Shown piece by piece: positions 47,482 through 64,000 of a DNA stretch of 64,000 nt. Location of the stretch: NCBI GenBank assembly GCA_041650995.1, contig JBAZJZ010000001.1, positions 149,757-213,756 on the forward strand. The letters are read 5' to 3'. A program made the translations under genes and the position numbers. This DNA comes from Patescibacteria group bacterium (GTDB taxonomy: Bacteria > Patescibacteriota > Patescibacteriia > XYB2-FULL-38-15). Within the stretch, counting starts at the first letter, position 1, and every line of letters starts with the position of its first letter. The notes below the pieces were generated by a model that worked only from the letters and a program-made list of their open reading frames with translations, did not search any database and was not told the DNA's origin.

Positions 47482-47514
47482 AACTACACACTCTATGAAG
47501 TGTGTAGTTTTTTG
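47482..47514 (+). terminator. rho-independent terminator after rpsI (actacacac-N7-gtgtgtagt + TTTTTTG)
   Basis: Perfect 9-bp stem and a U-run. Marks the end of the ribosomal operon and the host/phage-like boundary. Confidence 0.75.
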
Positions 47515-47606
47515 TTATGTTCTGCCGGTCTTGAAGGGAGGTTGTCCGCTGTGGATAACCACGAACTACACACTCGCTCTTCAAGCCGGGCAAAAAATAA
47601 TAATTC

Positions 47607-47638
47607 TTAATCTCACACCAAGGTGTGAAGAAAGGAAA
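47607..47638 (+). promoter_or_regulatory. 32-bp operator+RBS module copy 1 (TTAATC-TCACACCAAGGTGTGA-AGAAAGGAAA), 16-bp perfect palindrome
   Basis: Identical 32-mer at 48175..48206. Palindrome TCACACC-AA-GGTGTGA at 47613..47628 ends 12 nt before the ATG. Confidence 0.65.
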
Positions 47639-47640
47639 CT

Positions 47641-47847
47641 ATGGATCAGAAATTTGATCAAGCATTTGTGAATTACAATCTTGATTTGAAAGCGGCACGT
47701 ATCCGGAATGGCACGGATCACGGCCCGGTATCCAACCTCAGCTACAAGTGTGTTGAGTGCGGAAAATTCGTGAGCGGCCGGGTGGTTGATTTTTACGATG
47801 GAGAGGTTGAGAGAGTCCGGTGCTACGAGTGCCAAAATAAAGAATAA
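47641..47847 (+). CDS. small Zn-ribbon protein (CVECGKF...CYECQ)
   Basis: 68 aa, two CxxC pairs. First gene after operator copy 1. Confidence 0.5.
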   Translation: MDQKFDQAFVNYNLDLKAARIRNGTDHGPVSNLSYKCVECGKFVSGRVVDFYDGEVERVRCYECQNKE

Positions 47848-47856
47848 TTTTAAATT

Positions 47857-48159
47857 ATGGAAAATCAAAAATCAGTTTATACGCAGTACGCCGAAGTGGA
47901 CAAACAAATTAAAGATCTCCAAGAAAAACAAAAAATACTTCAGGTTGAGTGCTTAGTAGAAATGGAAAAAAGAAAAGCCACTCAAATAAAAACAGATCTC
48001 GGAATTTTCTCGGTAGCCGAAAGAAGAACCTGGACTTATAGCGCGGACTTGAAAAAAGAAGAAACAAACATCAAGGCCCTAAAAAAGGCGGAGGAAATTT
48101 CGGGCAAGGCGACGTGTGAAATTTCAAAGTCAATGAGATTTCTAAAAGCAAAAGAGTAA
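47857..48159 (+). CDS. hypothetical coiled-coil protein
   Basis: 100 aa, charged/helical. Confidence 0.4.
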   Translation: MENQKSVYTQYAEVDKQIKDLQEKQKILQVECLVEMEKRKATQIKTDLGIFSVAERRTWTYSADLKKEETNIKALKKAEEISGKATCEISKSMRFLKAKE

Positions 48160-48174
48160 AAATTTATAAAAACT

Positions 48175-48206
48175 TTAATCTCACACCAAGGTGTGAAGAA
48201 AGGAAA
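48175..48206 (+). promoter_or_regulatory. 32-bp operator+RBS module copy 2
   Basis: Identical to 47607..47638. Palindrome at 48181..48196. ATG of the next gene at 48210. Confidence 0.65.
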
Positions 48207-48209
48207 AGT

Positions 48210-49022
48210 ATGGCTGATACCATGAAGCCGGAAAATGAAAAAAGAGAACCGACACAAATTGTTAAAGCAGGAGAAAGTTTACCGCCGCAATTGATTGATC
48301 CGGCTAAGCAAGTTGAATTTGCCGGCCGCGCGGCCAAAGTTTTGATGGATATTATCAAAACAAAACCAAAAAAATTAGTTTTAAATGGTGAGCAATACAT
48401 TGAGTTTGAGGATTGGCAGACTGTCGCGCGGTTCTACAACATGACGGTTGGCGTTGACTGGACAAGAGAGATTATGCGTGAAGGAAAAATCCACGGATTT
48501 GAAGCCAAGGCAAATGTCTACAATTCTGGCGGAACAATAATCTCGTCGGCCGAAGCATCTTGTTTAAGGGATGAACCAAAATGGAATACCCGATCAAAAT
48601 ACGAATATAAAAATGGTAAGAGAAATAAAGTTAGTGACGAATTGGTCCCAGAATTTCAGTTAAAAAGTATGGCACAGACGCGGGCCTCTGCCAAGGCGTT
48701 GCGCAACGTGCTGGCCTGGGTTGTAGTGCTGGCTGGGTTCAAGGCCACGCCGGCTGAAGAAATGGATGGTGTAGAGGGTTTTGAGAGCCGGGCCGCAGCG
48801 CCGCCCGCAGGGTCAGTTGCCAGACCGGCAGTAAGACCTCCGGTTGCACCGGTCGCAAAAGATACATCGGCCAATGTTCCGGGAATTCCTGAAGAAAAAT
48901 TAATCTGCGCGATGACCGGTGTTAAAATCACTCAGGAAGAATATGCCTACAGCATGCGCAAATACGGAATGCCTTTAAGCCGGGCCGCGCAAAGAGAACA
49001 GCAGCAAGGAGGGGGAAATTAA
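48210..49022 (+). CDS. putative phage single-strand annealing protein (RecT/ERF-like), tentative
   Basis: 270 aa. Central region (LVLNGEQYIEFEDWQTVARFYNMTV...KSMAQTRASAKALRNVLAWVV) resembles RecT/Redbeta-type SSAPs. Ala/Pro-rich C-terminus. Adjacent to an exonuclease and RusA. Confidence 0.35.
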   Translation: MADTMKPENEKREPTQIVKAGESLPPQLIDPAKQVEFAGRAAKVLMDIIKTKPKKLVLNGEQYIEFEDWQTVARFYNMTVGVDWTREIMREGKIHGFEAKANVYNSGGTIISSAEASCLRDEPKWNTRSKYEYKNGKRNKVSDELVPEFQLKSMAQTRASAKALRNVLAWVVVLAGFKATPAEEMDGVEGFESRAAAPPAGSVARPAVRPPVAPVAKDTSANVPGIPEEKLICAMTGVKITQEEYAYSMRKYGMPLSRAAQREQQQGGGN

Positions 49023-49023
49023 T

Positions 49024-49302
49024 ATGGCAAATCCCATGGGAAAATTCGCGACTGGATGGAAAACAAATAAATTTAAAAGACTTGTCGGAGCAAAAAAGAT
49101 GTTGAATGTCGCGGCTATAAATCTTAATTCTGTATCAAAAGAAATCGGACGCGCGATTAAGGACGAGGAGCATGGGAGTGAGGAATTAGTCAGAGCCTTG
49201 GATTACGCCGTAAAAATAGGACAGATAAGCGAAGAGGTTGGAATGGAACTTCTAAGTGACAAGCAGAAGGCGGATAAATTTCTTTCGACGGGGGAAGTCT
49301 AA
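49024..49302 (+). CDS. hypothetical protein
   Basis: 92 aa. TAATATG overlap with the upstream gene. Confidence 0.35.
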   Translation: MANPMGKFATGWKTNKFKRLVGAKKMLNVAAINLNSVSKEIGRAIKDEEHGSEELVRALDYAVKIGQISEEVGMELLSDKQKADKFLSTGEV

Positions 49303-49324
49303 CTAACCACTAAACGCTTGTCTT

Positions 49325-49834
49325 ATGGCTACGCGAAAAAGAATGTTAGCGCCAAACATTTGGCAGGACTCAGGGTTTGGCCTTCTCTCTCAGGTTGGCA
49401 AATTGCTTTGGATCGGATGTATCACTCAGGCTGATGATGAGGGACGATTGACTGGCAATCCGGTTGTCTTAAAAGGCATTCTGTTTCCTTTTGGCGATCC
49501 TGATTTGAATGATGTTTTTGACGGAGTAGAAGAACTGCGCCAAACGATGAAAAATTTTATTCTTTACGAGGTTGGCGGTGAATGTTTCATCCAGTTAAAA
49601 AATTGGAAAATACATCAAATTTTGAGAGCAGACAGAAAGGCCGATTCGACCTTTCCTGCGCCACCTCGGGAGGCATTGGTTGATAAACGGTTGTCGGGCG
49701 GTTGTCAGGTGGGGACACAAGTAAGTAAGGAAGTAAGTAAGCAAGGAAGCAATGACGCCGCAATAAAAATTTTAAACCATTGGCGGACCGAACTGGAGAG
49801 CAAGGGAATTCTTACTAAAAAAAAGTTAATTTAA
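49325..49834 (+). CDS. putative replication initiation / replisome-organizer N-terminal domain protein, tentative
   Basis: 169 aa. Winged-helix-like N-terminal segment (WIGCITQADDEGRLTGNPVVLKGILF). Position within the replication/recombination module. Confidence 0.3.
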   Translation: MATRKRMLAPNIWQDSGFGLLSQVGKLLWIGCITQADDEGRLTGNPVVLKGILFPFGDPDLNDVFDGVEELRQTMKNFILYEVGGECFIQLKNWKIHQILRADRKADSTFPAPPREALVDKRLSGGCQVGTQVSKEVSKQGSNDAAIKILNHWRTELESKGILTKKKLI

Positions 49835-49838
49835 TTTT

Positions 49839-50048
49839 ATGACAGAACAGGAATTGAGAAAAGATAAAAATTTAGTTCTTTGCAGTCATTGTGACACACC
49901 GGCAAGTTGGGATTTATCATGCGAAGCTGGATGGGTTGGCTGTGCGCCATGTATCACTGGAGAGGCGGCAAGTTTTGATCCGGGAGATTTAATTGCTGCC
50001 GACAAAGATTGTACTGATTCTTTTTTGGAAGAATTTAATAAAAAATAA
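49839..50048 (+). CDS. small Cys-rich protein
   Basis: 69 aa, CSHCD...C...CAPC. Confidence 0.35.
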   Translation: MTEQELRKDKNLVLCSHCDTPASWDLSCEAGWVGCAPCITGEAASFDPGDLIAADKDCTDSFLEEFNKK

Positions 50049-50053
50049 ACAAA

Positions 50054-50470
50054 ATGACCCCCTCGGAAATTAGAGAAAATTTCCAACTCTACCAGTCCGG
50101 CAAGATCTCGCTTGCGGACTATACTCACCGAATCACGCCGGCCGGTAGAGTTATTGCGCCGGTTCCGCAAACTATGCAGATTCCATTTTTTGACGCCGCA
50201 AAAACTCAAAGAGCAAAACTACTCAATTTATTGCAAGATGGTTTGCCACATTCTACGCCGGAAATTATGCAAAAAGTTTATGGCAACGAGCATTGTGGCA
50301 TCGCGCGAATCGGCGCGCGAATAAACGATCTTGTAAAAGAGGGTTATGTATTCGTTGACGAAAATGGGATTGAACTTAAAGAGAATCGGCGCGGTTGGGC
50401 TGACAAAAATGACAGATCGGTTTACTGGTATTGTCTTAAAGAATTTAGACAAAAATGGTATGCGAAATAA
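50054..50470 (+). CDS. hypothetical protein, possible winged-helix DNA-binding domain
   Basis: 138 aa. LPHSTPEIMQKVYGNEHCGIARIGARINDLVKEGYVFVD resembles a wHTH. Confidence 0.3.
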   Translation: MTPSEIRENFQLYQSGKISLADYTHRITPAGRVIAPVPQTMQIPFFDAAKTQRAKLLNLLQDGLPHSTPEIMQKVYGNEHCGIARIGARINDLVKEGYVFVDENGIELKENRRGWADKNDRSVYWYCLKEFRQKWYAK

Positions 50471-50492
50471 TTTATAAATAATTAATTTTTCC

Positions 50493-51065
50493 ATGAAAAT
50501 AATTTATTTTGATACTGAAACGACCGGCCTCAATCCAGTGGTTAATGACATAATTCAATTTGCCGGAATAATTGAAATTGATGGTGAAGAAAAAGAAAGA
50601 TTTGATTTTAAATTACAGCCATTCAGTTACGAAAATATAAATCAGTCCGCGATGTCTGTTCACGGAATTACCGCTGAGCAACTTAAAAATTTTGATTCTC
50701 CCGGAGAAGCCTATAATAAAATAATTTCTATTTTTGACAAATACATTGATAAATATGATAAAAACGATAAATTTATTGTTTGCGGGTATAACGTAAAATT
50801 TGATGTAGATTTTTTAAAAGAATTTTTTTCTAAAAATAAAAATAATTATTTATTTTCATATTTTGGGGTTGTTAAAGATCCATTGCCCGTTCTCGGATAT
50901 TTGAAGAGCATTAATAAAATAGATTGCGAGAATTTAAAACTTGAATCAGTTTGTAAAATATTTGGAATAGAAATTTTTAATGCTCACAATGCCTTGGCTG
51001 ATATTGATGCGACAAGATCGGTTATAAAAAAAGTTGATGAGATATTAAATTCGGTCAAACTTTAA
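50493..51065 (+). CDS. DEDDh 3'-5' exonuclease (DnaQ/epsilon-like)
   Basis: Exo I YFDTETTGL, Exo II (FIVCGYNVKFDVDFL), Exo III (HNALADIDATRSV). Confidence 0.75.
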   Translation: MKIIYFDTETTGLNPVVNDIIQFAGIIEIDGEEKERFDFKLQPFSYENINQSAMSVHGITAEQLKNFDSPGEAYNKIISIFDKYIDKYDKNDKFIVCGYNVKFDVDFLKEFFSKNKNNYLFSYFGVVKDPLPVLGYLKSINKIDCENLKLESVCKIFGIEIFNAHNALADIDATRSVIKKVDEILNSVKL

Positions 51066-51083
51066 TCATTAAATAAAAATATT

Positions 51084-51320
51084 ATGGCTGGTATGCCAAG
51101 TAAAGGGGAAATTACAATCACGAGTAAAAATGCCGCTAAAATTTTTGATGCTGCCAGAGAAAAAATAGACAATTTAGTGATTGGAAATGCGAAATGGATA
51201 TGTCCGATTTTTTGGATGTATTGTCCGCGGTGTTTAAAAGTTCATGTCTTCAATAAAAAAACAAATAAAAAATGCAGAGATCAAATAATGAAAATTATAT
51301 CGGCCCAACTGGCAAAGTAA
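51084..51320 (+). CDS. small Cys-containing hypothetical protein
   Basis: 78 aa. WICPIFWMYCPRCLK. Confidence 0.3.
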   Translation: MAGMPSKGEITITSKNAAKIFDAAREKIDNLVIGNAKWICPIFWMYCPRCLKVHVFNKKTNKKCRDQIMKIISAQLAK

Positions 51321-51523
51321 AATGCCAAGAAATACAGCTCAAAGGCGGTGCCAAAGTGATTGTCAACTGGAGTAGTAAAACAAAATGCAAATGCGGCGCA
51401 GAATTTTGGTGGGCATGCACTAAAAATCACAAAATGATTCCGATTGTTTTGGTTGGTCATTGTGAATGGGCCGCACACTTCGCCGATTGTCCGCTTGCGG
51501 GTAAATTTAGAAAAAATAAATAA
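51272..51523 (+). CDS. small Cys-rich hypothetical protein (overlaps previous ORF by 49 nt, start uncertain)
   Basis: 83 aa. KCKCGAEFWWAC...HCEWAAHFADCP. Confidence 0.3.
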   Translation: MQRSNNENYIGPTGKVKCQEIQLKGGAKVIVNWSSKTKCKCGAEFWWACTKNHKMIPIVLVGHCEWAAHFADCPLAGKFRKNK

Positions 51524-51528
51524 ATTTT

Positions 51529-51780
51529 ATGCCAAACACTAAAATCGCAGAGCCGATGGATATAAATAAACCGGAGGCAATGCCAGCCAAAATTTATGTC
51601 ATTATTACAAGTGAAAAAGGAGAGGTTGTTTTTCCGAAAGGTCAGGGAGTTCAAATTATAAAGGGTTATTCACTTGAAGACGCTTTCGCCACTATTCGCA
51701 AGGAAAGGCCGGGTACACGAGACGTGACTTTTGTTGCATCACTTCTGCTTGATGATTTTCAAAAGAGTTTGGAGATTTAA
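51529..51780 (+). CDS. hypothetical protein
   Basis: 83 aa. Confidence 0.3.
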   Translation: MPNTKIAEPMDINKPEAMPAKIYVIITSEKGEVVFPKGQGVQIIKGYSLEDAFATIRKERPGTRDVTFVASLLLDDFQKSLEI

Positions 51781-52076
51781 AAATATGAAATGGTTTATTT
51801 GGGCAATTCTTAATTTAATACTTGGATCAATCTATGTAGGTTTGGAGCGCTACGGAATGGCGACATTTATGCTTGGGATATTTTTGTATGGAATGTTCAT
51901 TTCTTTAATTGAGAGAGAAAAATAATTTTTAAAAATGCTTGGTTTTCTTCGTTCTTTATAACAAAAATTTAATCATACCTTTTTGTCTGTTTTTATCAGA
52001 AAGGAGTAAGGGCAAGCATCGTCCGTCAATAAATCATCTTTGAGAAAACAAAAGACGGGCAAGAAATTAAAATATT

Positions 52077-52508
52077 ATGCCAATTAAAAATTATACCACG
52101 ACCGTCCCGGCCAATCGAAGCATTGAAGAAATACAGAGCGCTTTAGTTAAACACGGTGCGTCCGGCGTGCTTTACGAATACGAAAAGGGGACCGGGAGGA
52201 TCGCGGCATTGAAATTTAAACTTCAAATTGGAGAACAGGCGGTGGCATTTTCTCTGCCGGTCAGCTGGCGTCGTTTTCAGGCGGTGTTAGAGGAGCAGCA
52301 AGTTAAGCGCAGCAACGATGAGGATTATGTTTATCGCGTTTCTTGGAGAAATATCAGGGACTGGGTACTAGCGCAGCTCGCGCTTTATGAAACGGAGATG
52401 GTGGAATTGCCTCAAGTATTTTTACCATTCGCGACCGGAAAGGATGGTAGCACTCTTTATGACCGAGTGCTAAATCAAGGCTTTTTATTAACTGATGGTG
52501 AAAAATAA
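52077..52508 (+). CDS. hypothetical protein
   Basis: 143 aa. Confidence 0.35.
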   Translation: MPIKNYTTTVPANRSIEEIQSALVKHGASGVLYEYEKGTGRIAALKFKLQIGEQAVAFSLPVSWRRFQAVLEEQQVKRSNDEDYVYRVSWRNIRDWVLAQLALYETEMVELPQVFLPFATGKDGSTLYDRVLNQGFLLTDGEK

Positions 52509-52642
52509 TTTTATGAAAGAAAGAACAAAAGAGTTAGTAAATCTTCTAGCGATATGTATTTTCTGTATCGGAATTATAACATTTTTAATTATTGTGACAG
52601 TGAGATGTTGGAACATACCACTTATGGAAAGGACCGGGGTTT

Positions 52643-52897
52643 GTGCCATGCAGTTTATGTCACGTTAAATTTATGGATAAACCAAAAAAGTGTTGTGGGC
52701 TTGGAGAGTTTAAATGTCAAATTCCGATGCCAATTAAAGGACGAAGCCAAGACATTGATTTTTGTATAGCAGATATTGTTGCCGCCCTAAACGCCGCAAA
52801 TATCATCACGATTGCCTCTTGTTGCGGACACAAAAAATTTGATGGAAATATTATTTTAGAGGACGGCAGAGAATTGATTATTAAAATTAAAAAATAA
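52643..52897 (+). CDS. small Cys-rich protein
   Basis: 84 aa. CSLCHV...CCGLGEFKCQ...CIADIV...SCCGH. Confidence 0.35.
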   Translation: MPCSLCHVKFMDKPKKCCGLGEFKCQIPMPIKGRSQDIDFCIADIVAALNAANIITIASCCGHKKFDGNIILEDGRELIIKIKK

Positions 52898-53103
52898 ACC
52901 CACGAATAAACCCTGAGAGACAAATAGGCGGAAAGAATTAAAATTTTAGAGTATGAAGGAAAAATGTAATGGCTGCGGAAAAGAGGGTGGTGTGATCAAG
53001 CACTACATCATTGCCGACGATTTGGAAAATCCCCGCCCTTACCACCAGTCTTGTTTTAGAAATATGATTTGGCGCGCCTGGCAGAAATGGAAGGAGGCGA
53101 AGA

Positions 53104-53457
53104 ATGATTAAAATTTTGATGGATAATATCCGGCCGCTTTCAGTTAATGAGGCATGGCAAGGCCGGAGGTTTAAAACAAAAAAGTATAAAAATTATGAGC
53201 GTGAGCTGCTGTACTCTTTGCCGGCCAGGGAGAAGATTCTGGGAACCGTGGGAGTGGATATTAAGTTTTATTTTAAAAATCCGAATTGCCGGGATGTAGA
53301 CAATCCAATTAAGCCGCTGCTCGATATTCTGGACAAAAAAGGATATTTTGAAAATGACAAAAAAATTGTTTGTCTTCACGTGGAGAAAATAAAAAGTGAA
53401 ATGGAAGGTTTTGAAGTTTGTATTTATCCGACTATTTATGTGTCAAAGCAAAATTAA
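53104..53457 (+). CDS. rusA: Holliday-junction resolvase RusA
   Basis: 117 aa. PLSVNEAWQGRRFKTKKYKNYE..., DVDNPIKPLLDIL, ENDKKIV pattern of the RusA family. Confidence 0.65.
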   Translation: MIKILMDNIRPLSVNEAWQGRRFKTKKYKNYERELLYSLPAREKILGTVGVDIKFYFKNPNCRDVDNPIKPLLDILDKKGYFENDKKIVCLHVEKIKSEMEGFEVCIYPTIYVSKQN

Positions 53458-53624
53458 AAAACTCCGGCAACTGTACAAGAGGGAGTTTCGGGAAAAACTT
53501 TTGAACGGCTGGGTACATCTGCCGAGCGCCATTTGGGAGCTGATAAAGCCGAAGCCAAAATGGATGCCGCAATTTTTGTGGGTTAAATTAATAAGATTAG
53601 TTTTAAAAATTGACGAAGTAGAAA

Positions 53625-54908
53625 ATGGAAATAAAACAAATCAAAATCAAGGAACTCCTCCCGTCGGAATACAACCCCCGGATAATGCCGGACGACGAGA
53701 TGAAAAAACTGATTAGATCGATTCAGGAATTTGGTTTTGTGGAGCCGGTAGTGGTAAACCAGCATCCGGGGAGGGAGAACATCATCATCGGCGGCCACCA
53801 GAGAGTTCTGGCTGCCAAAACGCTCGGCTACGAAGAGGTGCCGGTTGTTTTTGTCAGCCTTACGCCGGAGAAAGAAAAGTTGCTGAATCTCGCGCTGAAC
53901 AGAATTTCCGGATCGTGGGAAGAAGAAAAGCTGGCCGCGCTTTTGTCCGAACTGGAAGAAGCAGACGTTGATTTATTTTTATCCGGTTTTAATTCGGCCG
54001 AGATAGACGAGCTGCTGAAAAATTTTCATGAGACAAAGGAAGAAGATTTTAATGCCGTAGAGGAATTGGAAAAAATTACCACACCGGAATCTAAGCCCGG
54101 GGAAATTTATGAGTTGGGCCGGCATAGATTGCTTTGCGGTGATAGTACGGAAATTCTGAATCTGAAAAAATTGATAGGAGAGAATATAATAGATTTGGTT
54201 TTTACTGATCCGCCGTTCAACGTCGGTTATAAATCAAGCGGCAAAAATCGGGACAAGTGGTCTGAAGCGTATGGAGATGATGATTACACGGACGAGGGCT
54301 TTGATGAATTTTGTATAAAAGTATTTGGAAATTTTAAGAAATTTTTAAAGGGTGGTGGTGCTTATTATGTTTGCTCGGGCTGGAGTTCCTGGGCATCTTT
54401 TTGGCAGGCGTTGAAGAAAAACAATTTGAAGCCAAAGGGATGTATTATCTGGGACAAGGGGCATGGCGGGATGGGATGGTCTGATTACTGGTACCAGCAT
54501 GAATTAATCGCAGCCGGGCTGAAATTTGAGGCCACCGGCGACACAGAAAGTGAAGTCTATGAGATGGTGGTTTACGGCTTTGACGAAAAGGCAAAACATT
54601 ATTTTGCCAAGAGGGGCGGCGCGCGGCTTACCGATGTTTGGCGTATTCCGCGAGATCCGAATAACAAGTATGAACATCCAACGCAAAAGCCGCTGAAATT
54701 AATTGAGAACGCGATTTATAACAGCTCGAGGATTGGTGACAAAGTTTTGGATATGTTTGGTGGTTCCGGATCAACTTTAATCGCGTGCGAGCGGACCGGG
54801 CGAACAGCTTTTTTAATTGAGCGTTCGCCTTTGTTTTGTGATGTTATTAGAAAAAGATATGAAAAATTCACCGGAGGAAGAGCAGTTAAAATTACCCCTA
54901 CCGGATGA
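53625..54908 (+). CDS. ParB-like nuclease domain fused to N6-adenine/N4-cytosine DNA methyltransferase
   Basis: ParB N-terminus (LLPSEYNPR...GGHQRVLAA). MTase motif IV DPPFN (TDPPFNVGY) and motif I-like MFGGSGST. Confidence 0.75.
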   Translation: MEIKQIKIKELLPSEYNPRIMPDDEMKKLIRSIQEFGFVEPVVVNQHPGRENIIIGGHQRVLAAKTLGYEEVPVVFVSLTPEKEKLLNLALNRISGSWEEEKLAALLSELEEADVDLFLSGFNSAEIDELLKNFHETKEEDFNAVEELEKITTPESKPGEIYELGRHRLLCGDSTEILNLKKLIGENIIDLVFTDPPFNVGYKSSGKNRDKWSEAYGDDDYTDEGFDEFCIKVFGNFKKFLKGGGAYYVCSGWSSWASFWQALKKNNLKPKGCIIWDKGHGGMGWSDYWYQHELIAAGLKFEATGDTESEVYEMVVYGFDEKAKHYFAKRGGARLTDVWRIPRDPNNKYEHPTQKPLKLIENAIYNSSRIGDKVLDMFGGSGSTLIACERTGRTAFLIERSPLFCDVIRKRYEKFTGGRAVKITPTG

Positions 54909-54940
54909 GGATAGTTGGGTCTTTGATTTAATAGAAAAAT

Positions 54941-55528
54941 ATGGAGGACAAGAATAAAAAAATGGATCAGAAACAAGGTTCCGCCTTTATGGCGTACTGG
55001 GGTTTGGGTGGAGATAGAAGTTTAGAACGGTTGTACCGAGAATGGACTAAATTACTACCGAATCTTAATCGGCCGCGGAGTATTACAACGCTGAAAAATT
55101 GGTCTTCTAAATTCAGATGGCAGGAGGAGATGGAAAAGATGGATGATGATGCTAACAAAAATCTCTTTGATGAAGCTAAGAATGTAGCGCGGGAAAGCAG
55201 GATTGATATTTTAAAGGTTTTTAGAGCCGTAGTTTTGAGATTTGCCACACAACTTAAAAATAACCCGGGCAAAGAAATTAACAGTTCTGACGTGGCAACT
55301 TTCTGGAAGATGGTAAGAGTGGAGATGGGATTACCGGCCGAACAAAGCAAAATGGAAATTAGTGAGGCAAAAACTCTTGATGACTTATTAAAAGAAGACG
55401 AAGAGGACTATGAGAACCAACAAAGAATTAATAGAGGGCCTGCTGAGAATTCAGAACAAAAAGCAGCAAAAAGTAAAATTCAAACTAAACGCAGTTCAGG
55501 CAAAATACGAAAAGGAACAAACAAATAG
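54941..55528 (+). CDS. putative terminase small subunit
   Basis: 195 aa. Position directly upstream of and overlapping the large terminase. Charged/helical. Confidence 0.4.
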   Translation: MEDKNKKMDQKQGSAFMAYWGLGGDRSLERLYREWTKLLPNLNRPRSITTLKNWSSKFRWQEEMEKMDDDANKNLFDEAKNVARESRIDILKVFRAVVLRFATQLKNNPGKEINSSDVATFWKMVRVEMGLPAEQSKMEISEAKTLDDLLKEDEEDYENQQRINRGPAENSEQKAAKSKIQTKRSSGKIRKGTNK

Positions 55529-56804: not shown

Positions 56805-57004
56805 GTAACAAAACAAAAGTGATGAGGGAGATCCCGGCGGAGTGGGACAGACTGATCAAGTTTGCCGAGGCGTTGAAATTTGGTGAGGCAAAGGTTGTTT
56901 TTCAAAATGGCCGGCCGGTTCGGATTGACCACGCGATTCAGCAAATCAAAATTGATAATGAAAAAGATTTTGATGACGGACTTAAAACAATTCCGCTGAT
57001 TTAA
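56795..57004 (+). CDS. hypothetical protein
   Basis: 69 aa. ATG overlaps the terL end. Confidence 0.3.
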   Translation: MALGNKTKVMREIPAEWDRLIKFAEALKFGEAKVVFQNGRPVRIDHAIQQIKIDNEKDFDDGLKTIPLI

Positions 57005-57121
57005 TAAAGTTGTAATAATTTTGTGATAGAGTATTTGTGGATAAGTTTTCTTGCGCGGATTTTTTTAAAGTTGTATAGTTAAATTAACAATTTATTTTTC
57101 GGGCTGAGTTGATTACCAATA

Positions 57122-57172
57122 GGCTCGCAATCTAATCTGATTTTTAATCGGGTTCGGTTGCGAGCCTTTTTT
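57122..57172 (+). promoter_or_regulatory. long hairpin (ggctcgcaa-N27-ttgcgagcc) followed by a T-run, immediately upstream of the portal gene
   Basis: Perfect 9-bp stem. Possible terminator, attenuator or packaging-related structure. Confidence 0.4.
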
Positions 57173-57178
57173 GTTTAT

Positions 57179-59323
57179 ATGAAACTTTTAGATAAATTTT
57201 TAGATACCATCGGCTTGGTTAGGAAATCTTTTACCACGCCATCGGCCTTGATCGCCGGGATGACAGGGTGGCTCTCCGGCGGCGGCATCAGTAAAGACGT
57301 GTTGATGGATTCAGGAAGGAACTGGGTTTATACCTGCATGCGCGCGATTGCCGAAGAGGTTGGGAAAATTGAATTGCGGCTCATCTCGATTAAAAAAGAT
57401 GGCACGGAAGAAGAAATTTTTGAACACGAGTTGCTGGATGTTATTTATAAGGCCAACAACTTCATGACAAAAAACGAACTCTTTGAGTTATTGTCAATGC
57501 ACTGGGATTTGGCCGGTAATGCATATTGGTTTATGGAAGGAGTAAATAAGCCGGGAGATCTGCCGACCGCTTTTTATCCTCTGAACCCAAAATATTTAAA
57601 AATTAAAAAAGGCAAGTGGCCGGTTCTGATTGAAAAATACGCGTACAAGGAACCGGATCAGCAGGGCGCGGAGTATGATCCTTTTAAAATTTTACATTTT
57701 CGGTTGCCAAATCCAAACAATTTAGCCGAGGGGCTGGGAACGGTTGAGGCGATTGCTGAATGGGTTGATGTTGAAAATTTTGCGACAAAGTGGAATCGCT
57801 TGTGGTTTTGGAATGGCGCGCGGCCGGATCTCGCCCTGACAACTGAGAATAATCTGACCGCCGACCAGCAGGAAATTTTGCGTACTTCATTTGAATCGGT
57901 CTACAAAGGCGTTGAGAACGCGCACAAAGTGGCGATCATGCCCAAGGGGACCGACCTTAAAGACATCAGCAAATCGCACAAGGACATGGATTTTACCGAG
58001 TTGGACCGGGTGTATCGCGATAAGATTTTGGCCGGCTTCAGAGTGCCGCGCACAGCGCTCGGAATTACCGATGATGTTAACCGCGCGAACGCCGAAGTGA
58101 CAAATTATGTTTTTGCTCTTCGCACAATCAAACCGCGCCTGCAGAGGATTGTTGATTATTTGAATGAATTTTTGGTGCCGCGATATGGCGAAAATATTTA
58201 TTTAACTTTCAAAGACCCGGTGCCGGAGAATAGAGAGCTCGAGCTCGAGGAAAATAAAGCGGCTCTGGGTGGTCAACCTTACAAGAGTGTTAATGAAGTT
58301 AGAGAAAATGATGGACTACCGGCGATTGAAAACGGCGACGCGGTCAGCACTAATTTCTCGCTTGTGCCACTTGGCAAACCGATTGAGAAGGCACAGCCGA
58401 AAAAGATTCAAATAAAAAAACGGCCGGGTCAAAGAAAAAAAGATGAGATTTTATCGGGAGTAGCATCGGCCGCGGCCAAGATGGTGACAGCAGAAATCAA
58501 GGCGGTGGTGGAGAAAAAATCTTTTAAGAATGAAGATTTAAAAAATGATGATCTGTGGGGTGCGGCCTGGAAATTATTTATTGGAAGAGTGACGCCTTAT
58601 GAAAAAGCGCTCAGGGAAGAGATTAAAAAATACAACGAAAAACAAAAAGAAAAAGTGTTGGCCGCCTTGTCCGGATTGGTTAAAGGAGTAAAGGCGATTA
58701 ATCCAAAAGATTTATTGAACGTGAAAGATGAGATTGGAGCGTTCATTAAACTTGCCACGCCAGTTTTGTTTGAATTATTTGGAAAAGAAGGCGAAGCGGC
58801 GCTGGCTTTAATCGGCGCGGATCAGGCCTTTGATTTCACTTCTCAAAAGGTCAAAGAAAAATTAAATGCGGCAATTAATCTCTTGGCCGAAAGCTATAAC
58901 GAAACGACGCTTGATTTGCTTAAAACAAAATTGAGTGAGGGGCTGGATGCCGGTGAGGGGCTGGATCAGCTAAAAGACAGAGTCTCAACGATCTACGAAT
59001 TCAGCGATGAATACCGGGCGGCGAGAGTAGCGCAAACGGAAACATTCAGGACCGGGAACGCGGCCACGCGCGAGGCGTGGAAACAATCCGGTGTGGTTAA
59101 AACCTTGAAATGGTACACGGCCGAGGATGAGCAAGTTTGTGAATTCTGCGGGCCGATGCACGACAAGACGGTCGGCGTAGAGGAAAAATGGTTTGACAGG
59201 GGAGAGGAAATCACCGGCGCGGATGGTGGGAAATTGAATGTTGATTATGTTGATATTGAAAATCCGCCGTTGCACGCCAACTGCCGCTGTTACATTCGTC
59301 CCGAGGAAATTTCAATTGAATAA
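57179..59323 (+). CDS. phage portal protein fused to MuF/SPP1-gp7-like head morphogenesis domain
   Basis: Start chosen at ATG 57179 (the track begins at a TTG at 57158). Portal-like N-terminal part. C-terminal AARVAQTETFRTGN...CEFCGPMHD...NPPLHANCRCYIRP MuF-family signature. Confidence 0.6.
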   Translation: MKLLDKFLDTIGLVRKSFTTPSALIAGMTGWLSGGGISKDVLMDSGRNWVYTCMRAIAEEVGKIELRLISIKKDGTEEEIFEHELLDVIYKANNFMTKNELFELLSMHWDLAGNAYWFMEGVNKPGDLPTAFYPLNPKYLKIKKGKWPVLIEKYAYKEPDQQGAEYDPFKILHFRLPNPNNLAEGLGTVEAIAEWVDVENFATKWNRLWFWNGARPDLALTTENNLTADQQEILRTSFESVYKGVENAHKVAIMPKGTDLKDISKSHKDMDFTELDRVYRDKILAGFRVPRTALGITDDVNRANAEVTNYVFALRTIKPRLQRIVDYLNEFLVPRYGENIYLTFKDPVPENRELELEENKAALGGQPYKSVNEVRENDGLPAIENGDAVSTNFSLVPLGKPIEKAQPKKIQIKKRPGQRKKDEILSGVASAAAKMVTAEIKAVVEKKSFKNEDLKNDDLWGAAWKLFIGRVTPYEKALREEIKKYNEKQKEKVLAALSGLVKGVKAINPKDLLNVKDEIGAFIKLATPVLFELFGKEGEAALALIGADQAFDFTSQKVKEKLNAAINLLAESYNETTLDLLKTKLSEGLDAGEGLDQLKDRVSTIYEFSDEYRAARVAQTETFRTGNAATREAWKQSGVVKTLKWYTAEDEQVCEFCGPMHDKTVGVEEKWFDRGEEITGADGGKLNVDYVDIENPPLHANCRCYIRPEEISIE

Positions 59324-59338
59324 TTAATTTAAAAATTT

Positions 59339-59623
59339 ATGTACCAAAAAAGCACACTTTACAACAAAACATTGACGCTCGCGGACACGGAGTATTCCCA
59401 AGCGCTGCCGACTGACACGAGAAAAGTTTTAATTAGTGAACGATCAGGCGGGGCTGATTTGAAACTGGCTTATGTTTCAGGGGAATCAGGTACAAAATTT
59501 ATTACCATTCGGGCCGGGAGTTCTAAATATCTTGAGGGAGTTTATTTGAGCGGGGTTACTCTCTATATGCAGAGCCCGACGGCCGGCGCGGTGATTGAGA
59601 TTGAGGTTTGGCAGGATCAATAA
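59339..59623 (+). CDS. hypothetical protein
   Basis: 94 aa, beta-rich. Confidence 0.35.
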   Translation: MYQKSTLYNKTLTLADTEYSQALPTDTRKVLISERSGGADLKLAYVSGESGTKFITIRAGSSKYLEGVYLSGVTLYMQSPTAGAVIEIEVWQDQ

Positions 59624-59648
59624 AATTTTAAAAATAATTTTATAAGCT

Positions 59649-61091
59649 ATGCAAAAACTTTTCAATTCAAAGTGGTTTAAAAGAATATCCATTGGCATTT
59701 TAGCCGTGGCTATTTTAATAATTCCACTCATTACGGCCGCGCAGATGGGCGGAGGTATCAGCGTGCCAAATTTCTTTAAGAGAGTAGGCAACGCCATAAA
59801 CCCGACAAACTCCTCCTGGACTCTCGGTTCTTCCGGCACACCTCTTGCCAACGGCTACTTCACGGCGCTCACCGCGGGCACGCTTACAATCTCTTCCACT
59901 GTCTCCGGCGACTTATCAGTGGGGGGCGTGATTAAGGCAAGTGCCGGCACCGCCGCCGCACCTTCCATAACTTTTACGGCCAATCCTGATACCGGATTTT
60001 ATTATAGTGCCGATACTATGGGCGTTGTTATAAACGGAACAATCGTTGGCAGTTTTACCGGATCAGGAGTACGAGCGACACAATTTATGAATACGGCGGC
60101 AGCTCACGTGTCCATTTTGGGCATGAACGCCGACGGAGCTACGGCTTATGCAACAAAAATTGGAAGCAATACGGCATTGACAACCGTCGGAGCAAAAATA
60201 GTTGGATTTTATAATGATGGATTTGTAACCGAAAAAGCGTACATTGATAAAGACGGCAATATGTATTTAGGCGGTGGGGCGATGATTGCCTTAACTTCAA
60301 ATACTGCGGCTTATTTCGCTGGAAACATAAGCAATGGTGCTTCTGCTATCGGAGTACAAATTGGAAATATAAACGCACTAAGCACGGCTGGAGCTAAGAT
60401 TGTAAGTTTTTACTCTGATAACAGAACAACTGAAAAAGCTTATGTAGATTATCTCGGTTCTTTCAATGCCGGTGCAGGGACTGCTTTATTGCCTGCTTAC
60501 TCGTTTGTTGCTGACCCGAATACTGGTATCTATTCGTATGGCGCTGACCAGATTGGATTTACTACAAACGGAGTTGCAAGAGCTTCATTAGACCAAACTG
60601 CTTTCTGGAATAGTACCTTTTATTCATTTGGTGCGGCGACCATTACAATGAAGGGTCAAGTTGCGGATGGAGCAAGTGCTGTTGGGGTTACTCTCGGTTC
60701 TTATGTATCCCAGACAACGGCAGGCGGAAAACTGTTATCTGTCGTAAACAACACGACGGAAAAGGCCTTTATAGACAAAGACGGCGCTTTCGGCTCGGTT
60801 CTCGGCGCGGCGACTATCGCGAACGCCGCTACTACTTTTGCGGCGCAAGGCAATGTAATGACCGTTACCGGCGATGCTGGCGGAAATACCGTGGCGACAA
60901 TTACGGCGGGCGTGGTCGGACAACGGCTCACGATGAAATTTGTTGACGCTTTGGTAACAATTACTGATACGGACGCGGCCACCGCGAACACAGTCAATTT
61001 AAGTGCGGCGTTTACTTCCACGGCGAACGACACGATGACGATTGTTTTTGACGGAAATAAATGGTTTGAAGTTTCTAGAGCGATTAATTAA
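59649..61091 (+). CDS. secreted Gly/Ala/Thr-rich repeat protein (3 x ~80-aa repeats ending TEKA(Y/F)(I/V)D..G)
   Basis: N-terminal signal/[22 protein letters not shown]. Repeats ...[24 protein letters not shown], ...[24 protein letters not shown], ...[22 protein letters not shown]. Confidence 0.5.
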
Positions 61092-61660
61092 TGTTTCAAT
61101 CTTGGATTATGGAATTTGCGATGTTCGGCGCGAGACATTAATTGTAGATTTTCAAGCCGATTATCAAGTTTATTTCCATTATTATGGTGGACAATTTCCG
61201 AAGTAATGAGTTTTCTTTTTAGATGTTTTTCCATGATAAGCCGATGTTCGCTGACCCGTTTTCCTTTAATAGAAAAAACCTTATATCCTTTCACAAGAAA
61301 TCCACTTCCATCATTAATTAATTTTAGGGGATCACCGTGTCGTAAAAATCTATGATAATGCATTGCACAAAATCCATGAGAGCCACCCTTATAAGTATCA
61401 GAAATATTATTGCAATTTTCTATAATACATTTTTTGGGTATAGAGTGGAATTTACGGAGACAAGACATAGAGCAAAATTGTGTTTTTCGTTGTTCAGAAT
61501 GAAAAGTAATATGGCAAAATTTACATTCTTTATCTGGAACTTTATGATGAAGAAGTTTTATTGGATCACCATATCTTCTCCAACGAGTGTAATGCATTAG
61601 ACAAAAATCTTTGATAATTCTCGTCGTGTTGTGGCAATTCTTGATTGAGCAATGTTTCAT
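61088..61660 (-). CDS. HNH endonuclease with duplicated N-terminal Cys/His zinc-finger modules
   Basis: HNH core [25 protein letters not shown]. Two repeats C..NC.N...FC.MHY.R..R.GDP. Confidence 0.7.
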
Positions 61661-61747
61661 AAAATTAAATAATTATTAATTATTTAATCATATCATAATT
61701 GCTATGAAATAACAAGAAGTGTCAATTAAATCTTAACTTTCAAAAAA

Positions 61748-61957
61748 ATGGACTCATCAAAAAAATCAATTCTCGTTGGATTTTCGTTGGGCATTATGGC
61801 CGCAATTTTGGGTTTTGGAATTTACTTTTTTATAGGATTGCGGACGCTCACAATTCAAAATGTTTCAGCCACAAATTATATTGTCAGTTTCTTGGCCAGT
61901 AAATATCCTGATTTTGGCCAGGCGCCGCAAGCGCAACCTACGCAACCGCAAGAGTAA
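61748..61957 (+). CDS. small membrane protein (holin-like candidate)
   Basis: 69 aa with TM ILVGFSLGIMAAILGFGIYFFIGL. Confidence 0.35.
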   Translation: MDSSKKSILVGFSLGIMAAILGFGIYFFIGLRTLTIQNVSATNYIVSFLASKYPDFGQAPQAQPTQPQE

Positions 61958-62008
61958 TCTGGGCAAAATAAATACAAACTGGGTAAATAATAATTAATTT
62001 AAAAAAGT

Positions 62009-62191
62009 ATGGACTACATCAAAAAACTTCTTAAATCAAAAACTGTCTGGGCTGGCATTGTCGCGGTCGTCACCGGCTTCGGGCTTTTTATGACCGGCGA
62101 GCAAGAACTTTCAGAATTTCTTTTTGGAGCGAGTGGCGTTCTTTCAATTATCTTGCGCTCGATGACTAATCAGCCGATTGAAAATAAATAG
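62009..62191 (+). CDS. small two-TM membrane protein (holin-like candidate)
   Basis: 60 aa. VWAGIVAVVTGFGLFMTG and GASGVLSIIL. Confidence 0.35.
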   Translation: MDYIKKLLKSKTVWAGIVAVVTGFGLFMTGEQELSEFLFGASGVLSIILRSMTNQPIENK

Positions 62192-62558
62192 TATGGAAAA
62201 TAAAGCAAAACAAATCGCTCTTGGCTTAGCACTGCTCGGCACTATGGTCGGCGGGGTTTTTACTTGGAACGAAGGAACGAGGCCTGAGCCGTTATCTTTT
62301 GAAGAGCAGGAAACACTACACAAAATATGGAATTACGAAATTGAAAAAGCGGGTGGGACGATCACACTGGAAAATACCACAGCAGATAATATCATCGTGA
62401 AAATTAACGAACGATTGTCCGACCCCTCTAAAGTGGAAACAAAAGATGTAAAACTGGACGGCGAAGAAGCGTTGACCGCTACGGAATACGAAACTTTAAA
62501 AGCTGGGTTGATGGATAAGGCCGAACAGAAGACAGCGATTGGCGAACTTTTACAATAA
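62178..62558 (+). CDS. membrane-anchored protein (spanin/antiholin-like candidate)
   Basis: 126 aa with N-terminal TM ALGLALLGTMVGGVF. Confidence 0.3.
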   Translation: MKINSMENKAKQIALGLALLGTMVGGVFTWNEGTRPEPLSFEEQETLHKIWNYEIEKAGGTITLENTTADNIIVKINERLSDPSKVETKDVKLDGEEALTATEYETLKAGLMDKAEQKTAIGELLQ

Positions 62559-62593
62559 CAACCAAAGGCGGCAGATAGAAAGAGAGGACGGAA

Positions 62594-62788
62594 ATGATGG
62601 TCTATGAGGTGTTCAAGTGTCCGCAGTGCAAGTGTGTCCATTCGTGCAAGTGGGGCGAGCAGATGAGCCGCTGTGCTACTTGCCCGCCCTCGGCGCAAGC
62701 GTCGTGTTCTATGCACGAAACGGCGACGAGGGTGTGGACTTATTGCGAAGACTGCAAGGGAGGTGACGGAAAGAAGGCAAGGCGATGA
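62594..62788 (+). CDS. small Cys-rich Zn-ribbon protein
   Basis: 64 aa. CPQCKCVHSCKW...CATCPPS...CEDCKGG. Confidence 0.4.
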   Translation: MMVYEVFKCPQCKCVHSCKWGEQMSRCATCPPSAQASCSMHETATRVWTYCEDCKGGDGKKARR

Positions 62789-62964
62789 ATATCCGCTACT
62801 GGGTTCGATCAAACTTGCGGTGTCCGCATTGCGACCGGAATCTCACGGAAATACTACTGGAAGATGATCCTCTCAATTACTACTGGTGTCAGCCGTGTCG
62901 CAAACTTTTTCGGCTTTCAAGAAATCCGAAGAAGTTGCTCTCGCTCGCACCGCCGAAGGAATGA
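62785..62964 (+). CDS. small Zn-ribbon protein (59 aa; CPHCDRN...CQPCRK), ATGA-coupled to the previous gene
   Basis: Read directly from the sequence. Not in the ORF track (<60 aa). Confidence 0.35.
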   Translation: MNIRYWVRSNLRCPHCDRNLTEILLEDDPLNYYWCQPCRKLFRLSRNPKKLLSLAPPKE

Positions 62965-63137
62965 GCAAACTCTGCCGCCATTCCTTTAATTCTTAAAAGA
63001 AAACTTATGAACAAAATTAAATGGTTAATCGTTAGTGTCGTTTTTTAGTCGGGATTTTTATTCAGGGGTTTGCCTGGAAGAATTACGAAACTTTTGACAA
63101 GGACTGGATACACAAAGGCGGCGTTGCTCACAGGGAA

Positions 63138-63503
63138 TTGAAGGTTGAAATTACAGCCGAGCCACAGAAAAACGAAACAGGGAGGGAGCAGATAGTGTTG
63201 GCGAATGGGAATTCCGAAATCAAAGATTATATCCGAAGTTTGTGGGGTGATGAAACAGAGAGGGCGTTTGAAATAGTGAATTGTGAGAGTGGCTGGAAAA
63301 CAGCAATTATCTCGCGGACAAATGATGTTGGGTTGTTTCAAATAAACCTCGCGGCTCACTGGGCGCAAATACCAGGGGAAGACAGAGCGGAAAAGATTTT
63401 ATGGCTTCAGAATTGGCGTAATAATGTTGAATTCGCCTATATGCTCTGGGCGGATCAGGGGTGGAGGCCGTGGGTATGCTCAAGAATTAAAAACTATTTA
63501 TGA
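63138..63503 (+). CDS. lytic transglycosylase / lysozyme-like (SLT-domain) putative endolysin
   Basis: SLT signature CESGW...TNDVGLFQIN (E-S...GLMQ pattern). Confidence 0.55.
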   Translation: MKVEITAEPQKNETGREQIVLANGNSEIKDYIRSLWGDETERAFEIVNCESGWKTAIISRTNDVGLFQINLAAHWAQIPGEDRAEKILWLQNWRNNVEFAYMLWADQGWRPWVCSRIKNYL

Positions 63504-64000
63504 TCCACTTTAATACTTACATACCGGAAAGAATCAAAAAGGGAAACGCCATTTATGAAATGATTTTTGGCGCAGGTGTGAAAACAGAGTCCTTTGACTG
63601 GTTAAAATATTTGCCGGATCGCGAGCGGCAGTGGTGGTTGCCTTTTTGTGTAGCGTTCAGCCGCCTGGACTGCGCCGAAGCGGTGGCGAGAAAAGCCGGA
63701 AAGACGCTTGATTTTTCAGATAGACGGCTCGCGGTTGAAAGCGGAACGAGTAAAAGAGGCAATACTCTTGATGCCGTCTCTGATTGTTTTCGTAAGAACG
63801 GCGTGGACAAAGAAGAAGATACTCCTTTAACAGCAAAGATGATAGCCGACGGCTGGAACGCCTGGGAAGCGATTAACAAGTTGCCTCGGGCCGGTGAAAG
63901 ATATTTTGGCGGGTCGCACTCTTGGGTATTAAGCAAGGCCGCGATGATAGACGCGCTTGATCATTCGCCGCTTCAAATCGCGGTCGGAGAGACGGACGCA
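63500..64000 (+). CDS. 3'-truncated ORF (>=167 aa), ATGA-coupled to the lysin; possible additional cell-wall hydrolase/peptidase
   Basis: Open frame from ATG 63500 to the window end. Not in the ORF track (no stop). Confidence 0.3.
   Translation, partial: MIHFNTYIPERIKKGNAIYEMIFGAGVKTESFDWLKYLPDRERQWWLPFCVAFSRLDCAEAVARKAGKTLDFSDRRLAVESGTSKRGNTLDAVSDCFRKNGVDKEEDTPLTAKMIADGWNAWEAINKLPRAGERYFGGSHSWVLSKAAMIDALDHSPLQIAVGETDA

Follow-up and report, generated by a model that had tools for sequence, protein, structure and literature searches.

A 64,000-nucleotide (nt) stretch of a Patescibacteria group bacterium genome (GCA_041650995.1, contig JBAZJZ010000001.1, positions 149,757–213,756; hereafter the window) changes from host ribosomal genes to phage genes at the end of rpsI, the gene for ribosomal protein S9. 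We conclude with high confidence that this phage-like region makes up the left 16.6 kb of a 32.1-kb temperate prophage of the siphovirus type that looks intact and is inserted between rpsI and queA in a chromosome of the Patescibacteria, or candidate phyla radiation (CPR). The element measures 32,096 nt from core to core of its attachment (att) repeat and is probably a complete, functional temperate phage integrated at the 3′ end of rpsI. Hallmark genes, an integrase accompanied by att repeats, and an unoccupied site in relatives assign it to the integrated temperate tailed phages (Caudoviricetes). Its gene content, both host junctions, the att repeat, and the empty and occupied sites of relatives are directly shown. 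An earlier note on this DNA had described phage gene content directly after rpsI, which family searches (Pfam, PHROG) bore out. It had also proposed a prophage of a CPR-type host continuing past position 64000, and contigs identical to the window indeed supplied the capsid, tail, integrase, and right junction with queA.

These contigs, 100% identical to the window, were retrieved by exact-protein look-ups. Logan contig SRR8542065_47206 (25,032 bp) extends from 54509 to composite position 79540. From ENA assembly ERZ27247363 we obtained k141_3117236 (105,796 bp), which aligns over 43625–60440 and ends at 60440, and k141_674185 (542,883 bp), which matches from 60300 onward. The window joined to k141_674185 forms the composite, whose coordinates continue those of the window. 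The left rpsI–phage junction was also present on k141_3117236, while SRR8542065_47206 and k141_674185 encode a capsid protein (PF05065), Phage_tube_2, TMP_3, and an integrase (PF00589), followed by queA. Contig extension with a search for an integrase and att repeats had been set beforehand as a check, and it yielded an integrase gene at 78191–79126 and an att repeat at 47409–47428 and 79505–79524. Exact look-ups gave no match for the portal protein translated from a TTG start (the form starting at the ATG at 57179 did match), for RpsI, or for a GC-rich open reading frame (ORF) described below. The ENA MEGAHIT assembly breaks inside a tail-fibre-like gene (60300–60440, with a 141-nt overlap), and the start of the Logan contig at 54509 falls inside a methylase gene. 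No tandem repeat was found inside the tail-fibre-like gene, and no internal repeat of this kind accounts for either break; co-occurring phage variants or mosaic relatives are suspected behind the assembly breaks.

Both ends of the prophage carry a 20-nt direct repeat, CCGCA[A/G]TGGCAAAAGAGATA, which equals the 3′ end of rpsI and contains one mismatch. Comparison of the two junctions with blastn-short located the attL core (CCGCAATGGCAAAAGAGATA) at 47409–47428 on the + strand and the attR core (CCGCAGTGGCAAAAGAGATA) at composite 79505–79524, outside the window and 52 nt upstream of queA. The true left edge of the element is this attL core and not position 47515. Both copies translate to PQWQKR-stop, and the block of identity between them is the 14-nt TGGCAAAAGAGATA. 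In a related prophage in GCA_040961035.1, attL reads ...CACAATGGCAAAAGAGATAG and attR ...CCGCAGTGGCAAAAACGTTAA; because these two sites share only the block TGGCAAAA, strand exchange in the related phage would be confined to those 8 nt. The phage attP sequence GTGCACCGCAGTGGCAAAAGAGATAGCGCCACGCGCC is the same in both phages, and the predicted attB and attP are ...GAGCCCCGCAATGGCAAAAGAGATAAAGAGCATTTTC... and ...GTGTAGTGCACCGCAGTGGCAAAAGAGATAGCGCCACGCGCC..., respectively. At attL, the end of S9 keeps PQWQKR* with the phage-type codons AAG AGA TAG, and the host-type end of the relative, AAA CGT TAA, has moved to attR. The attP site thus carries a version of the S9 C-terminus in synonymous codons, which takes the place of the host's own. 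A tRNA-type att site was rejected: ARAGORN detected no tRNA in the window, in extension contig L001 (up to the tape measure gene), or in the related contigs L004 and L005, and neither a tmRNA gene nor any Rfam family was found in the window.

The tyrosine integrase (311 amino acids (aa); composite 78191–79126, − strand) is encoded 380 nt from attR. It contains the catalytic domain PF00589 (114 bits; cut-off 27.1) and the SAM-like core-binding domain PF02899 (29 bits; cut-off 22.3), and its best solved relative is XerA (5hxy, E = 7e-25). The R...HxxR...H...Y residues are present, with GVRIGEL, HSCRHGF, LGHAS, and QIYIH aligning with GVRVGEL, HVLRHTF, LGHAS, and QIYTH of XerA. The protein is nearest to XerA and XerD, yet it lies far under the NCBIfam Xer equivalog cut-offs (157 against 329.6 for XerD, 144 against 335 for XerC, and 162 against 220 for XerA) and sits inside a mobile element; identification as a chromosomal XerC/XerD resolvase was rejected. 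In the mechanism that we propose, this Xer-like integrase at the far right end would have recombined the phage attP with the 3′ end of rpsI. The attP site has a recoded copy of the last S9 codons (PQWQKR-stop), and the essential rpsI gene would therefore stay intact.

A terminator scan identified a terminator-like hairpin of 13 pairs followed by a T-run at 47480–47511 on the + strand. The earlier note had called it the rpsI terminator, but it lies inside phage DNA and is absent from an empty site (L106), and the native terminator hairpin is found to the right of attR. The phage hairpin may thus replace the native terminator, now 32 kb off, and would shield the co-oriented early operon from ribosomal-operon read-through. 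Its arms are built from the motif ACTACACACT. Further copies stand at 47565 and, in inverted form, 3 nt to the left of the attR core; there are four copies, three in the window against 0.01 expected and the fourth at composite 79492. A DnaA-box-like 9-mer, TGTGGATAA, occurs at 47550–47558 (+ strand) and could act as an accessory or arm site. The 81 kb contain five copies, of which four are in the prophage, one of them 122 nt right of attL and another 99 nt left of attR, and the 9-mer is conserved next to att in L093, L094, and L096 as well as next to an attP-like site on contig L103. Both att-flanking motifs are conserved in relatives and may serve as binding sites for the recombinase or an accessory factor.

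We collected the states of this site in relatives by scans with RpsI and with the att core. A clean empty site was found on L106, where rpsI is followed by 52 nt and then queA. In a complete 886-kb chromosome (L004) and in L005, synteny at ~82% nucleotide identity ends at the rpsI stop codon, and an insert of ~100 nt without phage genes precedes queA. On L104 (Ga0265297_10208567, reverse-complemented, 121–1103), from a closer relative, an insert of ~960 nt encodes only a 259-aa protein with helix-turn-helix (HTH), HNH, and Zn-finger features, without an integrase, and is bounded by attL/attR-like copies CAGTGGCAAAAGAGATAA and CAATGGCAAAAACGTTAA. Related prophages occupy the site in two metagenome-assembled genomes (MAGs): Falkowbacteria GCA_016214745.1 (tail tube 95% and integrase 68% identical; right junction seen) and GCA_040961035.1 (90% and 96%, respectively; both junctions seen). 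The rpsI/queA site is thus a hotspot with at least four allelic states. Synteny in non-lysogenic relatives, which the earlier note had named as a possible refutation, instead supported the prophage, since the phage genes are lacking in L004, L005, and L106.

Several further observations concern this site. Contig L103 (Ga0265296_1008925) carries, at ~1907–1926, an attP-like sequence that matches the attR side exactly over 26 nt, has a similar right arm, and shows TGTGGATAAC at +80. The contig is otherwise unrelated, with Fic/DOC, YgjP peptidase, exonuclease, and PIF1 helicase genes and no integrase or phage genes nearby. Among 80 rpsI loci, a Bacilli MAG (L075, 10616–11050) has a tyrosine integrase gene that immediately follows rpsI and lies on the opposite strand, in keeping with the hotspot known from Streptococcus, and a Peribacteria MAG (L062) has an integrase ~3 kb downstream of rpsI.

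Contig ends provide a view of how the site varies within samples. For Logan contigs, the k-mer size is 31. Contigs L097 and L098 of the related phage begin precisely 30 nt ahead of the first position that distinguishes attL from the predicted attB, L095 runs precisely 30 nt beyond the last position that distinguishes attR from attB, and SRR8542065_47206, which carries the phage of the window, ends at composite 79540, that is, 79510 + 30. Arithmetic on contig ranges places L097 (32,525 bp, seen in three samples) from attL−30 to attR+30 on the NCBI contig. Such offsets of 30 nt mark branches in the de Bruijn graph at the two att sites. In those samples another rpsI–queA configuration, either an empty site or a different occupant, must therefore coexist with the lysogen, as judged from contig ends and not from reads. 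No out-branch was seen at the att core, so attP was not evident from these contigs.

We weighed three other explanations against an integrated, functional prophage. An assembly chimera, in which a free or episomal phage genome was misjoined to the chromosome at a short shared sequence, is highly improbable. Assemblies do break inside the element or at its ends (ENA at 60300–60440; the Logan contig spans just 54509–79540), and all data on this exact phage may stem from one sample. However, the sequence shared at the junctions is just 14–20 nt, shorter than either k-mer size of the assemblies (31 and 141), and the left junction was recovered in two assemblies and the right junction on a 543-kb contig. 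The junctions moreover show the exact attL/attR structure expected of site-specific integration, two other MAGs have related prophages (68–96% protein identity) at the rpsI/queA site, and relatives with an empty site are known. With both host junctions, the flanking att repeat, and these occupied and empty sites in hand, the suggestion in the earlier note of an episome misjoined to the chromosome was abandoned. That the phage belongs to another bacterium, such as a proteobacterial partner, and was mis-binned or recently transferred is barely credible. The tail tube, 52–58% identical to proteins of Parerythrobacter, Nitrosomonas, gammaproteobacteria, and uncultured Caudovirales, would fit such an origin; against it, the element is contiguous with CPR ribosomal genes on contigs of 106–567 kb, its attP imitates the rpsI end of this very host, it agrees with the host in tetranucleotide usage and GC content, and its nearest relatives (90–96% identity) are in other Patescibacteria and Falkowbacteria MAGs.

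A defective or domesticated remnant, or a satellite, unable to form virions or to excise, is unlikely, although several findings point that way. Among them, the head module is interrupted by two homing-type HNH insertions and an inserted block, no clear endolysin was recognisable, and relatives have small inserts without an integrase at this site, evidence that such elements do decay. Other points also weigh against a functional phage or against the breadth of its support. No repressor or excisionase was recognised, the only candidates being a 48-aa ORF with a weak HTH and several minus-strand ORFs. An att-core scan of IMG/VR and JGI contigs found no attP junction, the mark of an excised circle, for the phage of the window. 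TerL, the lysis genes, and several tail genes are assigned on weak or positional evidence, phage activity is argued from intactness and contig ends only, and the window and its extension contigs may share one sample, the assemblies being independent but not the samples. In contrast to a decaying remnant, however, the element has long open frames for TerS, TerL, portal, capsid, adaptor, neck, tube, tape measure, distal tail, and integrase, its structural genes are 85–95% identical to those of a second prophage in another MAG, and the contig ends indicate that the site is polymorphic within three samples. A satellite of the phage-inducible chromosomal island (PICI) or P4 type is excluded by the element's own full structural set, and the degraded or satellite-like element considered in the earlier note accordingly gave way to one with a full set of virion modules. 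An intact prophage, which may be inducible, remains our preferred interpretation.

The genes of the element were ordered from left to right. An early recombination and replication module (Rad52-like annealing protein, initiator-like protein, exonuclease, RusA, and ParB-methylase) is followed by TerS, TerL, and portal-MuF; an inserted block that holds a tail-fibre-like protein and what is probably a lysis cassette; scaffold and capsid, head–tail connectors, tube, tape measure, and distal tail; and finally the integrase and a small HTH gene adjoining attR. The virion would combine an HK97-fold capsid with a non-contractile tail tube and a tape measure. Phage-like content begins at 47641 and runs to 64000, all on the + strand but for an HNH gene at 61088–61660. 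Within 47515–64000 there is no integrase, capsid, or tail-tube gene, as the earlier note had reported together with the lack of a tRNA att site. Its calls of a DnaQ exonuclease, RusA, a ParB-methyltransferase, TerS, TerL, portal-MuF, and a reverse HNH gene all passed family searches.

The early region opens with a 32-nt exact repeat, TTAATCTCACACCAAGGTGTGAAGAAAGGAAA, containing a 7-bp hairpin and a Shine-Dalgarno sequence. Its first copy (47607–47638, + strand) lies just upstream of the ORF at 47641 and its second (48175–48206, + strand) upstream of the ORF at 48210. In a related prophage (L096), the stem differs by compensatory changes, among them a G-U pair, and the repeat is therefore probably an RNA hairpin of the 5′ untranslated region. 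Two small proteins without a family match follow the first copy, a 68-aa Zn-ribbon protein recognised by its CxxC...CxxC pattern (47641–47847; 90% identical in L096) and a 100-aa protein (47857–48159; 89% identical in L096). The 270-aa product of 48210–49022 is a candidate single-strand annealing protein with a predicted Rad52-like fold. No Pfam or NCBIfam family, including RecT and ERF, matched it at E ≤ 0.01, and its PHROG match is phrog_19042, which has no assigned function; the family has 2,334 members. Its AlphaFold2 (AF2) model has a predicted local distance difference test (pLDDT) score of 81, and the top Foldseek matches in the PDB were RAD52 and Mgm101 (probability 0.9–1.0, E = 5e-4), with template modelling (TM) scores of only 0.25–0.49. 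The predicted fold suggests that the protein probably belongs to the Rad52 superfamily of annealing proteins; the RecT/ERF-like annealing protein proposed in the earlier note thus holds as a probable annealing function, Rad52-like by predicted fold only, and not as a RecT/ERF profile match.

A 169-aa protein (49325–49834) has a replication-initiator-like N-terminal domain (phrog_16167, E = 4e-15; phrog_1408 'replication initiation protein', E = 8e-13) and no Pfam match; the previously suggested replication-organizer-like role is retained for the initiator-like N-terminus. It is followed by a DnaQ/RNase T-type 3′-5′ exonuclease (50493–51065; RNase_T, E = 8e-22; phrog_192, E = 5e-37) and by a cluster of small ORFs (51084–52897), several of them Cys-rich or with a transmembrane segment, that is not conserved in the related prophage. 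The module ends with a RusA Holliday-junction resolvase (53104–53457; Pfam RusA, E = 1e-12; phrog_11573, E = 7e-25) and a fusion of ParB_N with an N6/N4 DNA methyltransferase (53625–54908; ParB_N, E = 1e-11; N6_N4_Mtase, 3e-31; phrog_498, E = 6e-129).

Packaging genes come next. The terminase small subunit is encoded at 54941–55528 (phrog_6299, E = 1e-14) and the large subunit at 55410–56804 (phrog_2, E = 6e-24), the start of the latter being uncertain, as other gene callers place it at 55620. TerL has no Pfam, NCBIfam, or PDB sequence match. A tblastn comparison (E ≤ 1e-5) also detected no resemblance between TerL and its positional counterpart in the related prophage (L096, 18712–20073), although the flanking genes are 86–95% identical; by sequence comparison, this difference reads as mosaicism through a module swap. 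The related phage additionally has a HerA-like ATPase and a YopX gene, both missing here. A fusion of portal and MuF-like head-morphogenesis domains occupies 57179–59323 (Phage_portal, E = 4e-57; Phage_Mu_F, E = 3e-13; phrog_2662, E = 2e-107).

Between the portal and the scaffold and capsid genes lies an inserted block of ~5.3 kb (59339 to composite 64648), delimited by synteny with relatives from IMG/VR (L084–L088); in these distant relatives, portal-MuF, a 427-aa protein, and the capsid are contiguous. The block contains a fibre-like gene, an HNH gene, three small membrane proteins, two Zn-ribbon ORFs, an SLT-like ORF, and ORFs of 295 and 84 aa. The fibre-like gene (59649–61091) encodes a fast-evolving 480-aa protein with an N-terminal hydrophobic segment and weak matches to Phage_depo_C (E = 1.5e-4) and to a tail-fibre PHROG. 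Its homologs are mosaic, 300–830 aa long, and located on phage-sized contigs, some of them named tail fiber, and it is 46% identical in the related prophage against 85–95% for the flanking genes. The protein is probably a receptor-binding protein, as far as its sequence goes, and what the earlier note had read as a secreted repeat protein belongs instead to a tail-fibre/depolymerase-like family. The HNH endonuclease gene on the − strand (61088–61660; HNH_3, E = 6e-9; many HNH PHROGs) is absent from the related prophage L094 and is probably a homing-type insertion.

The same block is the sole candidate for a lysis cassette. Three small membrane proteins of 69, 60, and 121 aa (61748–62558), whose hydrophobic segments were read from the translations, have no family match and are candidate holin-type proteins by inferred role. 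A 121-aa candidate lytic transglycosylase with CES and GLFQI motifs (63138–63503) reaches 22.8 bits against a cut-off of 21.3 for Pfam SLT, a borderline match that spans 33 residues only; its L094 homolog has a 'faint' SLT match. It has no PHROG, NCBIfam, or PDB match, and its single-sequence AF2 model (pLDDT 41) was unusable. A PDB sequence search gave no match for the fibre-like protein either. The lysis module of the earlier note survives as these candidate SLT-like and holin-type genes, with the SLT assignment at the margin.

Gene calls on the identical contigs complete the block and the right half. The 295-aa ORF, which has no family match, starts at 63500 on the + strand and runs off the window, and the 84-aa protein follows beyond 64000. 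After it come a 427-aa protein in the scaffold or protease position, the HK97-type major capsid protein (composite 65975–67174; Phage_capsid, PF05065), a head–tail adaptor, an HNH/NUMOD-like insert, a neck (gp10-like) protein, the tail tube protein (L092, 9770–10744; Phage_tube_2, PF18906), a 626-aa tape measure protein (TMP_3 and many tape-measure PHROGs), and four distal tail proteins. An accessory stretch of ~800 nt separates the distal tail genes from the integrase, the 48-aa ORF with a weak HTH lies between the integrase and queA, and host queA begins at composite 79577. Two HNH/homing-endonuclease-like genes break up the structural operon, one in L092 (8388–8765; composite 68687–69064) and one in the window (61088–61660), and both are missing from the related prophage L094. 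The full-length identity of 52–58% between the tail tube and proteins from Parerythrobacter, Nitrosomonas, gammaproteobacterial genomes, and freshwater uncultured Caudovirales is unusually high for phages of hosts so distant.

On the host side, Pfam searches identified the ribosomal cluster rpsM-rpsK-rpsD-rpoA-rplQ-rplM-rpsI (43743–47429, + strand), with queH, mnmA, and alaS to its 5′ side. The integration target rpsI spans 46881–47429 on the + strand (Ribosomal_S9, E = 1e-41), and the NCBI label on the proteins is 'Patescibacteria group bacterium'. GC content is 41.8% at 47515–64000, 42.2% across the whole prophage, and 41.5% in the host part; the higher GC reported in the earlier note did not hold for the mean, but its patchiness did, as local 200-nt peaks reach 63%. 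The tetranucleotide profile of the prophage matches that of the host (r = 0.95–0.96). Nearly all genes of the window, host and phage, are on the + strand, GC skew is positive throughout, and the prophage is co-oriented with the host.

Small inserts accompany this site and others. The mini-inserts of close relatives (~100 nt, and ~960 nt with an HNH gene only) lack an integrase and lie at exactly this core, flanked by recoded attL/attR-like copies of the S9 C-terminus. In the window, an 85-nt GC-rich element at 17088–17168 has on either side a copy of the first 60 nt of rnhA, which encodes RNase HI (17030–17090 and 17199–17259). An element ~90% identical to it stands in the opposite orientation directly after rpsI in L004 (10558–10640) and L005 (6878–6944), and in L004 it is bracketed by a 23-nt duplicate of the rpsI end that equals the phage att core. 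The 85-nt element has no Rfam match, is not a tRNA, and has no copy in IMG/VR; it folds only marginally better than shuffled sequences (z −1.7 to −2.2). Tentatively, and at low odds, a whole family of CPR mobile elements may use the region between the 3′ end of rpsI and queA as a common insertion site, the mini-inserts may be satellites or resemble cis-mobilizable elements (CIMEs) moved in trans by the phage integrase, and the 85-nt element may itself be mobile with unusually long target duplications. Elsewhere in the window, a 1.1-kb island of 65–73% GC in this 41% GC genome (13850–14950) lies between lepA (11403–13184) and recJ (15301–17025). It holds a single 361-aa Cys-containing ORF (13825–14910) without a Pfam family and could be foreign DNA or an assembly artefact.

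Prophages in Patescibacteria/CPR MAGs have been documented, among them att-flanked prophages in Absconditicoccaceae (bioRxiv 10.1101/2024.03.08.584096), prophages of ~44 kb in Paceibacteria (PMC12455944), and those from groundwater surveys (PMC12960796, PMC12911398). Like them, the present element is an integrated tailed phage of 30–45 kb in an ultra-small genome, with an integrase, att repeats, and an accessory DNA methylase. It differs from them by its host lineage, which uses the standard genetic code and has relatives labelled Falkowbacteria, and by the resolution of att site, empty site, and polymorphism to the nucleotide. The nearest GenBank phage is remote, with a capsid at most 29% and a portal at most 27% identical. 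The 3′ end of rpsI is also an integration hotspot of Streptococcus integrative and conjugative elements (ICEs), prophages, and PICI-like elements via tyrosine integrases (PMC4701971, PMC7487436). The resemblance extends to the target at the 3′ end of the S9 gene, the tyrosine recombinase class, the restored gene end, and the use of the site by several element types. Unlike the streptococcal elements, the occupants here belong to an unrelated phylum and comprise a siphovirus-type prophage and tiny integrase-less inserts instead of ICEs.

Lambdoid and HK97-like temperate siphoviruses likewise include phages with att sites at the 3′ ends of genes, such as phage 21 and e14 in icd. The shared features are a tyrosine integrase, an attP with a substitute 3′ end of a housekeeping gene, a predicted HK97-fold capsid, a tail with tube and tape measure, and an early module of RusA and an annealing protein. 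Unlike lambdoid phages, this element has no recognisable CI/Cro switch and places its probable lysis cassette and fibre-like gene inside the head module, and unlike lambda, it has a short Xer-like two-domain integrase in which no lambda-type arm-binding domain was detected. As for the annealing protein, the predicted beta-beta-beta-alpha core of the 270-aa product resembles RAD52 and Mgm101 of the Rad52/Sak/Erf superfamily, and its gene accompanies those for an exonuclease and RusA in the early recombination module, whereas it departs from that superfamily in having no RecT, ERF, or Rad52 Pfam profile match and in its low TM scores.

Prophages of Patescibacteria and integration at the 3′ end of rpsI are both already described, and our findings change nothing about prophages in general. 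Because CPR/Patescibacteria are mostly uncultured, phage–host links in this group are usually statistical guesses. The present case is a physically linked CPR phage–host pair at nucleotide resolution, with attP and attB defined, a candidate integrase identified, and empty, occupied, and mini-occupied alleles of one site all documented. With the site as a marker, lysogeny might be followed in these populations, and the Xer-like integrase, together with its ~20-nt target in an essential, conserved gene, could be a starting point for a CPR integration tool.

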